Shown: positions 44,269-47,777 of the stretch, piece after piece
How positions within the stretch are numbered: position 1 is the first letter of the stretch
How the letters are laid out: each line of letters begins with the position of its first letter
Origin: Symbiobacterium thermophilum
Lineage (GTDB): Bacteria > Bacillota > Sulfobacillia > UBA995
NCBI GenBank assembly: GCA_020725145.1
Contig: DYFO01000001.1
Span: forward strand, 46,855-110,854
Length of the DNA stretch: 64,000 nt
Direction of reading: 5' to 3'
The notes under the pieces: model-generated
What the model was told of the DNA's origin: nothing
Database searches by the model: none
What the model saw: only the letters and a program-made list of their open reading frames with translations
Position numbers and translations under genes: made by a program

Positions 44269-45951
44269 GTGCTCATGCTTCCCGGCAAGGAGGCGATCGC
44301 GTCGGCCAGGATCACCCTGGTGGAGCCCAGGGCACCCCACTATCACGTGTTCAGCTCGGTGCGACTGCCCCGGCTGGGCCTGGTGACGCTGGCCACCGAA
44401 CTCGCACGCCGTGGTCACCAAGCCCGGGTCTGGTGCCAGGCCTTCGGCGAGGTCCCCGCCTTCGAGCTTCTTCGCTCCGATCTGGTAGGGCTGAGCGTCA
44501 CCACCTCCACCGCGCCCGAGGCCTACCGTCTGGCGCGCCTGCTGCGACACCAGGGGGTCACCGTGGTGCTCGGCGGCCCCCACGTAACCTTCCTGCCCGA
44601 GGAGGGTCTCGAGGTCGCCGACTACGTGCTGCGGGGAGAGGCGGAGGCCACTCTCTCGGCCTTGGTCGACTGCCTGACGCGGGGAGAGGACTGGCGCTGG
44701 GTGCCCGGGCTGTCCTATCGCGAAGGGGGAAGCTGCGTGCACAATCCCCTGCCTCCGCCGGTGGAACCCGACGCGCTTGCCCGGCCCGACCTCGGGGTGC
44801 TGCAAAACGCCGGACGCCTCAGCCTGCACCCGATGTTGACCTCGCGCGGTTGTCCCCACGAATGCACCTTTTGCGGGGTAACCGCCATGTTCGGCCGCCG
44901 GTACCGGTTCCGGGCCGCCGAGGCGGTGGTCGCGGAGCTGGCCGCCTGCCGGGGCAGGCGCGTGTTCTTCTACGACGACAACTTCACGGCATCACCGTCC
45001 CGCGCCCGCGAGATCCTGCGTCTGGCCCTGGAACGGCGGGCGGTCCCGCGGGCCTGGATGGCGCAGGTGAGGGTGGAGGCCGCGCGGGACGCCGAGCTTC
45101 TCCGGCTCATGGCGCGCACCAACTGCCGAATGGTACACGTGGGACTGGAGTCGGTCAACCCGGGCACCCTCCGGAGCTTCCGCAAAGGCCAGGGTGTCGA
45201 GGACGTGCGCCACTGCATCCGGGCCTTCCACCGGCACGGCATCGCCGTCCACGGCATGTTCGTGCTGGGCGGCGACGAGGACACCGTCGAGACGGTGGAA
45301 GAGACGGTCGCCTTCGCCCGCGCCGAGAGGCTGGACACCGCCCAGTTCATGGTGCTCACCCCCCTCCCCGGAACGACGCTGTTCGCCGACCTCGAGCGCC
45401 AGGGGAGGCTGCTGACCCGTGACTGGTCGCGCTACGACGGTCATCACGTGGTGCATCTTCCCGCCCGCATGACTCCCCAGGAGCTGCAGGCGGCCACCGT
45501 CCGCGCGTTCGCCCGCTTTTACGGGCTGGGCAACGCCTTCCTCGACTTCCTCACCGGCCGGCCCGGTGCCGCAGGCTACAAGCTGATGGGCCGTTACATA
45601 CTCGGCCGCTGGTTGGCCCATCATCCCGATCTCGAGGCCGCCGTCGGGCCGGCGCCCAGGAGGCGCTTCCGCCTGGAAGGCTTGCTCGACGCCGAGACCT
45701 TGGCACGACTGACGGCCGAGCTCCGCACCGCCTTGCGGGCGGGCCAGCGGCAGCTGGAGATCCAGCTCGCCGACCTCGAGCTACCGTCGGAGCAGACGTT
45801 CGGACGGTTGATCCGCTTCCTGGACGGCCTGGCCGCCCGCCCGGGGGTGAGCGTCCGCCTGCTAGGGTTGGGCGCCCGCCTGGAGAACATGGTGATGGCC
45901 ATGCTGGCCAGGCTACCCCGGTTCGACTGCGTGCGACCGGACGAGGCCTGA
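44269..45951 (+). CDS. B12-binding-domain radical SAM protein
   Basis: The N-terminal cobalamin-binding Rossmann-like domain is followed by CPHECTFCG (CxxxCxxC). Total length is 560 aa. Confidence 0.75.
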   Translation: MLMLPGKEAIASARITLVEPRAPHYHVFSSVRLPRLGLVTLATELARRGHQARVWCQAFGEVPAFELLRSDLVGLSVTTSTAPEAYRLARLLRHQGVTVVLGGPHVTFLPEEGLEVADYVLRGEAEATLSALVDCLTRGEDWRWVPGLSYREGGSCVHNPLPPPVEPDALARPDLGVLQNAGRLSLHPMLTSRGCPHECTFCGVTAMFGRRYRFRAAEAVVAELAACRGRRVFFYDDNFTASPSRAREILRLALERRAVPRAWMAQVRVEAARDAELLRLMARTNCRMVHVGLESVNPGTLRSFRKGQGVEDVRHCIRAFHRHGIAVHGMFVLGGDEDTVETVEETVAFARAERLDTAQFMVLTPLPGTTLFADLERQGRLLTRDWSRYDGHHVVHLPARMTPQELQAATVRAFARFYGLGNAFLDFLTGRPGAAGYKLMGRYILGRWLAHHPDLEAAVGPAPRRRFRLEGLLDAETLARLTAELRTALRAGQRQLEIQLADLELPSEQTFGRLIRFLDGLAARPGVSVRLLGLGARLENMVMAMLARLPRFDCVRPDEA

Positions 45952-45960
45952 CCGAGGAGT

Positions 45961-46760
45961 GGCCGCCGCAAGCCCCCGGCTTCGGCCAAGGGGATAAGGC
46001 GGCCGGCAGGCAGCTTGGGTGGGGTATAATGTTTCCATGCCGCGGTACACGGTGGAGTACAAATCGCACAACAACGTGGTCTATTCCTGCAAGTACCACG
46101 GCATATGGTGTCCCAAGCACCGCCGCCCCGTCTTGGTCCCCGAGGTCGCCGAGCGGCCAAAGCCGATTATACGTGCCGTAGCTGAAGAATACGGCGCGGA
46201 AGTCGCCGAGCTTGAGGTCATGCCGGACCACGTGCACCTTCTGGTGGAAGTCGATCGGCAGTTCGGCGTCCACCAGCTGGTTCGGAAGAGCAAAGGCCGG
46301 TCGTCCCGGCTGCTGCGGGACGAGACGAAGCTCTCCCAGGCCTGTCACGGCTGTGGGACGATCGAGAAAGAGCCTCTGGCCCTGCGCGTCCACGCCTGCG
46401 AGTGCGGGGTCTTCATGCAGCGCGACCTCTACTCGGCGTTTCTGGCGCGGTGCGTGGGGGAAGACAATTTGCTCCACGCGGGCCTGGCGCGAATGCGCTG
46501 GCCGGGTGCGGAACCGCTCTTGCGGGCGGCGTGGAGCGAAGCCACCCAACCTGCGAATGGACGGCTCGGGCCGTCCTCCTTCGGGGTCTTACCCTGGAGT
46601 CGGAGCGGGTCGCCCGCGGAAGAGGGGATAGCCAAGGCCGAGGCCCCGGATGCCCTAGCGGAGGCGCAAGTCTCCGGCGAGAGCCGGGGAGAGGCGGCGG
46701 TGGTTCCCCTCAGCACCCCCCGGCTTTAGCCGTGGGGAGGTTCAGAAAGGGCCGTCTACT
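45961..46760 (+). mobile_element. Decayed IS200/IS605-family element with a chimeric TnpA(N-terminus)-TnpB(C-terminal Zn ribbon) ORF
   Basis: A structured hairpin-rich leader spans 45961-46004. The ORF combines the Y1/HuH transposase N-terminus ([14 protein letters not shown]...[11 protein letters not shown]...KGRSSRLL) with the TnpB C-terminal zinc-finger region ([10 protein letters not shown]...[19 protein letters not shown]). Confidence 0.6.
46037..46729 (+). CDS. Chimeric IS200 TnpA-like / TnpB C-terminal remnant ORF (probably non-functional)
   Basis: ATG 46037 lies just after a TATAAT at 46025-46030. Motifs are as in the mobile_element entry. The TnpA catalytic-Tyr half and the TnpB RuvC body are absent. 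Confidence 0.55.
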
Positions 46761-46817
46761 GAAGGACGGTCGCGCGCCGGCGTAGAAGTCGGGGTTGGCG
46801 AAAGAGGTGAGCGGAAG

Positions 46818-47777
46818 TTGCCTGCCAACCTGACTCCCGAATACCGCGAGGCCGAGCAGCGTTTCCGGGAGGCGCAGACCCCTGAGGAGAAGCTCGCCGC
46901 CCTTGAGGACATGCTGCGAACCATCCCCAAGCACAAGGGTACCGAGAAGATGCAGGCCGACATCAAGCGGCGCATCGCCCGTTTGCGCCAGGAAGGCAAC
47001 CGGCGCCCGGCTTCGGCGCGCCATCGGCCCACCCATCACGTGCGGCGTGAGGGTGCCGGGCAGGTAGCTCTGGTGGGACCGCCCAACGGCGGCAAATCCG
47101 CCCTGCTCGCGGCCTTGACCAACGCGCAGCCGGTGGTGGCCGACTATCCGTTCACCACCCGCGAACCCCAGCCGGGGATGATGCCGTTCGAGAACGTGCA
47201 GATTCAGCTCGTGGACCTGCCCCCGCTGGCGAGGGAGCTTATGCCTCCGTGGCTGCCCGGGGTGGCGCGGGCGGCCGACGCGGTCGTGCTGGTGCTGGAC
47301 CTCAGCGACGATGACGTTCTCAGCCAGGCAGAAGAAAGTCTCGAGCTTCTGCGGGGGATGCGGCTCGACCTTTCGGGAGAGGGCGGCAAGCGGGGGCTGG
47401 TCGCCGGAACTCGCCGCGACCGGCCGGGGGCCCAGGAGCACGCGGAGCTCCTGCGTGAGCTGCTCGGCGAACGCCTGCCGGTGGTGGCGGTGTCGGCCAC
47501 CCGGGGAGACAACCTGGACGAGCTCAAGCGTCGCATCTTCGAATCGCTGGGGATCATACGCGTGTACACCAGGGCGCCCGGCAAGAAACCCGATCTTACG
47601 GCACCCTTCGTGCTGCCACGGGGTTGCACGCTCCTGGAGGCGGCGGCCGCCGTGCACAAGGATTTCGCCCGCGATCTCAAGTACGCCAGGGTCTGGGGAG
47701 CTTCCACCTTCGACGGCCAGATGGTGCAGCGCGATCACGTGCTGCAGGACGGCGACGTGGTGGAGTTTCACGTCTGA
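46818..47777 (+). CDS. Obg/DRG-family GTPase with a C-terminal TGS domain
   Basis: TTG 46818 follows GAAAGAGGTGAG. The G-domain has G1 ([10 protein letters not shown]) and G3 (DLPP). The C-terminal TGS is ...[32 protein letters not shown].... Confidence 0.65.

Follow-up and report, generated by a model that had tools for sequence, protein, structure and literature searches.

The closest known counterpart of the element considered here is IS608 (ISHp608), an IS605-group element of Helicobacter pylori. Its target is the tetranucleotide TTAC, and elements of its type carry a DNA guide just 5' of the core of the right-end (RE) hairpin. PATEs, non-autonomous derivatives of the family, occur in many copies, generally without ORFs. 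Work on IS605-type elements has indicated that TnpA and TnpB have a common TAM, that a TEM related to this TAM lies at the RE, and that DNA guides are situated inside the ends (Meers et al., PMC10055086). Protein-less, PATE-like derivatives of such elements and their mobilisation in trans by TnpA have also been documented (PMC10055086).

The DNA analysed here (the window) is a stretch of 64,000 nucleotides from Symbiobacterium thermophilum. Sequence comparison identifies 793 bp of it, positions 45953-46745 of the forward strand, as a remnant of an IS608-type (tnpA plus tnpB) element of the IS200/IS605 family, a defective rather than a functional member of that family by descent. The remnant itself is an ordinary pseudogenised IS, and its history is very probably the following. 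An IS608-type element, complete with a left end (LE), a leaderless tnpA, a tnpB with an overlapping omega-RNA, and the RE, would have inserted where a B12-radical SAM gene ends, immediately 3' of the TGAC that contains its stop codon. Later, a single deletion of about 1.24 kb between two CGAG tetranucleotides would have joined the two frames in frame by chance, giving a tnpA'-tnpB' pseudogene. What survives would be the sequences that work in cis as DNA or RNA, namely the TAM, a hairpin at each end, and an omega-RNA scaffold with hardly any damage. The comparisons below demonstrate the homology, the boundaries, the junction, the decay of tnpA and the RNA covariation; how the deletion arose, TGAC as a TAM, transcription and any activity left in trans are inferences.

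Boundaries and ends of the element

The remnant lies between genes for a B12-binding radical SAM protein and a TGS-domain GTPase, the same neighbours that had been named in the original prediction (a B12-radical SAM gene and an Obg-like GTPase). The extent of 45961-46760 given there is corrected to 45953-46745 by comparison of the LE and RE boundaries. Across 8 left ends, homology starts at T-GACC (window 45949), which is invariant, and the flanks upstream diverge; across 23 right ends, homology extends precisely to the end of ...GGGGAGGTTCAG (window 46745) and no further. The tetranucleotide TGAC (45949-45952, +) abuts the LE and adjoins it in 13 of 14 other copies, with CGAC in the remaining one. 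Since six copies in a single alphaproteobacterial MAG are preceded by TGAC in five cases and by CGAC in one, the T, and by analogy the whole tetranucleotide, is placed in the flank. These comparisons of left and right ends are the reason for reading the element as 45953-46745 with TGAC as its target and candidate TAM, a role proposed on the model of IS608 and ISGst (PMC10055086). Insertion at TGAC is thus suggested by comparison between copies; the flanks of the window copy have no repeat in common. The TGA of TGAC also terminates the radical SAM reading frame.

The LE (45953-46036, +), aligned to related elements, contains a nested, imperfect hairpin at 45961-46004, with an inner stem-loop at 45973-45993, and a -10 box, TATAAT, at 46025-46030, 6 nt ahead of the ATG at 46037. 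Both had been taken in the original prediction to resemble an IS605 left end, and 8 related elements do have both at their left ends; the LE is of the IS605 type. The cores of the LE hairpin and of the RE hairpin (46713-46743) are 82% alike as direct repeats. Single-sequence folding gives them unremarkable z-scores (-1.05 and -0.82 for LE and RE, respectively), so that the case for these hairpins is one of conservation and not of folding energy. A two-hexamer sigma-70 scan returned no promoter in either the window or the intact relative L005; the conserved -10 box alone is present. In the window (46025-46039) as well as in the left ends of L005 and L002, TATAAT stands 6 nt ahead of the tnpA ATG and there is no Shine-Dalgarno sequence, an arrangement that points to leaderless tnpA transcripts throughout this IS clade. 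The window LE is damaged. Relative to L005, L002 and L010, 16 nt are gone from the spacer that separates the hairpin from the -10 box, at 46006/46007; in addition, a T>C change at 45977 breaks one pair of the inner stem, and a T>G change at 46022 removes the TG of the extended -10.

At the other end, the RE hairpin GCACCCCCCGGCTTTAGCCGTGGGGAGGTTC and the terminal AG that follows it (46713-46745, +) are near-invariant in 23 elements, the last ~34 nt being almost unchanged even where TnpB identity is only 44%. Flanks diverge directly after TCAG (46742-46745, +), which marks the element boundary and is a candidate TEM. Here too the window copy carries a lesion, an A>C change at 46714 that breaks one stem pair: all 22 copies from other loci have A, and the C recurs where a second assembly covers this locus (L006). 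Just past the RE, a hairpin without a T-run (46749-46772, GGGCCGTC-tactgaag-GACGGTC) may have served the radical SAM gene as its terminator before the insertion. The stop codon of that gene lies inside an IS target motif, and its likely terminator has been displaced to about 800 bp downstream.

In intact relatives of the element TnpA has 135 aa and TnpB about 476-500 aa. L005 (JGI metagenome 3300029892) has tnpA followed by a tnpB of 476 aa (P0122), and L002 (Candidatus Hydrogenisulfobacillus filiaventi) has tnpA and a frameshifted tnpB, which appears as two ORFs. Some 2 kb downstream of the L002 element there is an IS607-like pair of genes, for a serine resolvase and a TnpB (L002 3262-4834 and 6860-8834 for these features together). 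Searches with blastn, tblastn and LE/RE patterns revealed no further copy in the 64-kb window, where the LE and RE consensus patterns occur once each and shuffled sequences lead one to expect 0.

The deletion junction and the fused reading frame

Alignment of the remnant to L005 yields two collinear blocks that overlap by 4 nt. The first (window 45948-46324, L005 3397-3789) covers the LE and tnpA' at 89.8% identity including the 16-nt gap, and the second (window 46321-46745, L005 5023-5447) covers tnpB' and the RE at 97.2%; identity to L002 is 82-84%. Between the blocks 1,237 bp are absent from the window, namely a third of tnpA, at its 3' end, and some 70% of tnpB, from its start. The overlap, CGAG at 46321-46324 (+), is found at both breakpoints in intact L005 (3786-3789 and 5023-5026). 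Both the 1,237 bp and the 4-nt microhomology are read off a relative that is 94-97% identical, not off the copy's own ancestor. As far as the alignment goes, one deletion at the microhomology would be the simplest account of the gap, its mechanism likely being replication slippage or microhomology-mediated joining. The original prediction had proposed just such an internal deletion, across the 3' part of tnpA and most of tnpB, and the single 1,237-bp gap against intact elements agrees with it; no frameshift correction restores separate tnpA and tnpB genes.

A junction in a metagenome-assembled genome could also be an assembly artefact, produced by collapse of tnpA onto tnpB, and two observations lean that way: the family is repeated in the community, and three odd mismatches between assemblies cluster in the repeated part. 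This explanation is nonetheless scarcely credible. The same deleted locus, with the identical junction, is present in an independent JGI assembly (L006), on a contig of 101,616 bp as compared with the NCBI contig of 116,891 bp. Furthermore, at the junction tnpA and tnpB have no more than 4 nt in common, which is not enough to cause misassembly, and the left half carries private substitutions and the private 16-nt deletion. The window and L006 differ at 3 of 8,693 positions. All three differences (window 46520, 46542 and 46597; L006 4484, 4506 and 4561) lie in unpaired columns of the scaffold described below, within 78 nt, a clustering with a probability of ~3e-5 under a uniform expectation. 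Gene conversion among copies, mis-mapping of reads in the repeat, and local hypermutation are candidate causes.

An empty site was sought by way of the GTPase neighbour and none was found, the GTPase of the closest genome being only 78% identical. In that genome (L092, GCA_031082145.1) a gene for a 663-aa peptidase S9/Tricorn-like protein (L092 1925-3916) occupies the position between the radical SAM and GTPase genes, so that no clean empty site is available; synteny is otherwise kept (Metallophos, radical SAM, GTPase, SurA-like). A metagenome scan with a 37-nt scaffold pattern gave five loci, none with the window's junction. Two of the five are 5'-truncated remnants (L088 10035-10249 and L090 2381-2658) that retain only the RE-proximal 214-275 nt, that is, the 3' part of the omega-RNA and the RE; the L088 remnant abuts unrelated AT-rich DNA.

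The deletion leaves a single ORF of 230 codons (46037-46729, +), which runs from the ATG at 46037 to the TAG at 46729 and joins TnpA residues 1-96 in frame to the last ~134 residues of TnpB. Its tnpA fragment (codons 1-96, 46037-46324, +) is recognised by the Y1_Tnp and IS200 profiles and by a structural-database alignment of an intact relative. Pfam Y1_Tnp matches ORF residues 15-98 over profile positions 2-85 of 121 (E 2.3e-24), the ORF matches positions 1-91 of 126 of the NCBIfam IS200 transposase profile, and the identity of residues 1-96 to IS200/IS605 transposases of 130-136 aa reaches 85%. The HUH motif is retained (HVH within MPDHVHLL). When TnpA of an intact relative is aligned with IS608 TnpA (PDB 2a6m, E 1.4e-52), the stretch that corresponds to IS608 residues ~94-155, including Tyr127 and Gln131 (KQYIENQ), proves to be deleted from the window, which bears out the view of this ORF as a Y1 transposase start without its catalytic tyrosine. 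With Tyr127 and Gln131 gone, the fused protein cannot transpose.

The remainder of the ORF is the 3' fragment of tnpB (46325-46729, +), in frame with the tnpA fragment. The Cas12f1-like_TNB profile finds ORF residues 99-134 (profile positions 27-57 of 60, E 4e-4) at 20.9 bits, against a gathering score of 26.3. Despite this weak match the assignment is solid, because the C-termini of TnpB-family proteins (P0002-P0013, P0023) share 58-86% identity with residues ~97-230. The claim that the ORF runs on into the zinc-finger end of TnpB therefore stands, and the C-terminal region as a whole is clearly TnpB-derived. It retains the zinc finger (CHGCG...CECG) and the RuvC-III motif with its Asp (QRDLYSAF). 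The RuvC-I (GLDIGPS) and RuvC-II (KTEKLS) regions of the relatives are deleted, and for this reason the fused protein cannot cut DNA.

Full-length relatives score 98-125 bits on the NCBIfam guided_TnpB profile (cut-off 100), and this profile stops at aa 380 of the 476 of P0122. Thus, the TnpB clade has a C-terminal extension of about 96 aa, found at window 46440-46729, at L005 5141-5431 and in homologues, with the TAG stop codon inside the loop of the RE hairpin. What had been described as an unrelated tail of ~100 aa is in fact this conserved, clade-specific part of TnpB, which overlaps the omega-RNA scaffold. The extension may be a functional peptide or just a frame held open by constraint on the RNA. 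A PDB sequence search with a full-length TnpB relative produced no match. Matches to the clade, at least 518 (L007-L086), occur in Bacillota, Cyanobacteria, Nitrospirota, Chloroflexota/Ktedonobacteria, Alphaproteobacteria and the archaeal Methanoperedens, and some MAGs have multiple copies. About 30 nt of the RE hairpin are nearly identical between phyla, which suggests broad horizontal spread. As judged from these matches, the TnpB clade is an uncharacterised, widely spread one that is linked to an IS608-like TnpA.

Since the 230-aa frame is still open, the fusion protein might have a function, and the product might be thought a domesticated one, for example a hairpin-binding, catalytically dead TnpA N-domain with a zinc ribbon that serves as an inhibitor or regulator of transposition. 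The intact ORF, the HUH motif, the zinc-finger cysteines and the family's conserved -10 box ahead of the frame would all fit such a protein. Yet this is a very unlikely reading, first because the fusion is confined to the window's locus. Of the matches listed from a database of 5.8 billion proteins, P0001 and P0121 alone extend across both halves; both stem from this locus, P0121 being a near-identical sequence from the JGI assembly, and the other listed matches cover at most 67% of the query. (An exact look-up of the 230-aa product returned no record, and the locus was recovered through the cluster member P0121.) Second, the tnpA fragment is decaying. With L010, L002 and L007 as outgroups to polarise changes, the window lineage has acquired 8 replacements in tnpA' (N11H, V22G, Y28H, L41P, Q43P, V57A, P74R and K80Q) as opposed to 2 silent changes. 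Seven of the 8 new residues are absent from all 98 homologues, and V22G, Y28H, L41P and P74R fall on positions that are 92-100% conserved, those of L41P and P74R being 98-100% conserved. Third, the two near-identical alleles of the ORF differ by 2 amino acids and by no silent change. Finally, conservation of the tail is accounted for by constraint on the RNA, and at a G+C content of 69% open frames are cheap. The pile-up of replacements at conserved tnpA positions fits a pseudogene and not a domesticated fusion. In annotation, the 230-aa ORF should accordingly be labelled a pseudogene or IS remnant rather than a transposase or a novel fusion protein.

The omega-RNA scaffold and possible residual activity

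The last 300 nt of 13 elements were aligned and analysed with RNAalifold. The consensus, an omega-RNA-type scaffold at 46470-46745 (+), has 13 helices and 74 pairs, and compensatory changes occur at 23 of these pairs. Standard pairs fill 93.9% of cells, compared with 41-51% once partners are shifted 1-3 columns, and none of 500 shuffles matches any of the observed pairing measures. Numerous G-U pairs are compatible with the + strand only. The coding sequence tells a similar story. In the TnpB core the fractions of variable sites at the three codon positions are 0.39, 0.34 and 0.86; in the tail they are 0.38, 0.33 and 0.39. Thus, third positions of the tail are under a constraint that does not come from the protein. 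A structured RNA of omega-RNA type, conserved and supported by covariation, is therefore retained in the 3' region, where the original prediction had considered a residual ncRNA possible. The covariance-model scan that it recommended returned only miRNA-like noise and no omega-RNA family, both at gathering thresholds over the whole window and in an Rfam 15 scan of 45900-46850 with E-values up to 10. The scaffold ends at the RE boundary, so that a guide would be flanking host DNA; by the TnpB/omega-RNA architecture (PMC10055086), the predicted guide portion is AAAGGGCCGTCTACTGAAGG (46746-46765, +).

The window copy keeps 72 of the 74 consensus pairs, as does intact L005. Such preservation raises the question of residual activity, and on sequence grounds the remnant may be mobilisable in trans or may be a source of guide RNA for a TnpB made elsewhere. 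In its strongest form, the idea is that the locus is a living non-autonomous element of the mini-IS/PATE type, which an intact TnpA from elsewhere in the genome would excise and reinsert by way of its LE and RE, and whose omega-RNA, transcribed from the tnpA promoter, would direct a TnpB made elsewhere to the vacated TGAC-AAAGGGCCGTC... site. The TAM, both hairpins and the TEM are all there; scaffold pairing is as complete as in L005, which is itself an intact tnpA plus tnpB element, 94-97% identical, from the same metagenome; and protein-less PATE-like relatives and trans mobilisation by TnpA have precedent (PMC10055086). Moreover, the window lineage shows proportionately fewer changes in the scaffold (2 of 276 nt) than in the remainder of the element (16-18 of 517 nt; Fisher p 0.02-0.04). 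However, this contrast is weak, is not seen in the L005 lineage, and is contradicted by the three recent differences between the assemblies, all of which lie inside the scaffold. Evidence for selection on the omega-RNA after the deletion is thus weak and contradictory. The ends have also suffered: in the LE/promoter region 16 nt are gone, the inner stem is one pair short and the extended -10 has no TG, and the substitution at 46714 sits just 5' of the RE hairpin core. No second copy with the same junction turned up in the window, among the protein database matches listed, or in the metagenome scan, and L005 is tied to the window at the level of the metagenome only. Taken together, a living element is an unlikely, though not a negligible, explanation.

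More doubtful still is the possibility that the remnant is an orphan guide-RNA gene. Here the tnpA promoter would drive a transcript of the chimeric ORF, from which TnpB of a sister copy would process the omega-RNA; the guide AAAGGGCCGTCTACTG... would then police this one locus, or the 0.8-kb element would still be moved in trans. If true, this would be a natural case of a TnpB guide uncoupled from its own nuclease gene. The preferred reading remains that of a pseudogenised insertion that went through one deletion. Apart from it, the comparison defines features of the whole clade, namely the element boundaries, the TGAC TAM, the TCAG TEM, and a scaffold of ~275 nt that is absent from Rfam. The clade's putative TAM and omega-RNA scaffold have a modest side value, since they could help in mining for compact RNA-guided nucleases.

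Comparison with known systems

Multiple features relate the element to IS608. TnpA of the intact relatives matches the IS608 structures 2a6m/2vjv over its full length (E ~1e-52) and has both the HUH motif and the Tyr127/Gln131 pair. The order LE, tnpA, tnpB, RE is the same, as are the subterminal CCCC..GGC-loop-GCC..GGGG hairpins, which are alike at both ends. A putative 4-nt target adjoins the LE, TGAC here; terminal inverted repeats are absent and no target duplication is visible. In contrast to IS608, the window copy is missing 1.24 kb, and with it both catalytic centres. The clade also has a divergent TnpB, with no sequence match in the PDB and 98-125 bits on guided_TnpB, whose C-terminal extension of ~96 aa lies wholly over the omega-RNA.

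The RNA resembles the omega-RNA (reRNA) of ISDra2 and ISGst2: it is structured, lies on the tnpB strand, overlaps the 3' end of tnpB and stops at the RE boundary, and its putative TAM would be common with the transposase target (PMC10055086). Like TnpB omega-RNAs, it is supported by covariation and by the many G-U pairs that suit the + strand only. It differs from the ISDra2/ISGst2 type in that it matches no Rfam 15 family and has a long scaffold of ~275 nt, and in that the cognate tnpB is deleted in the window copy, so that the window RNA could act only with TnpB supplied in trans.

The two truncated remnants of the family, L088 and L090, have lost their 5' parts, whereas the window copy is internally deleted. 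As in PATEs, both the LE and the RE are retained without a working transposase; unlike PATEs, the window remnant is single-copy, carries a chimeric ORF, and shows point damage at both ends.
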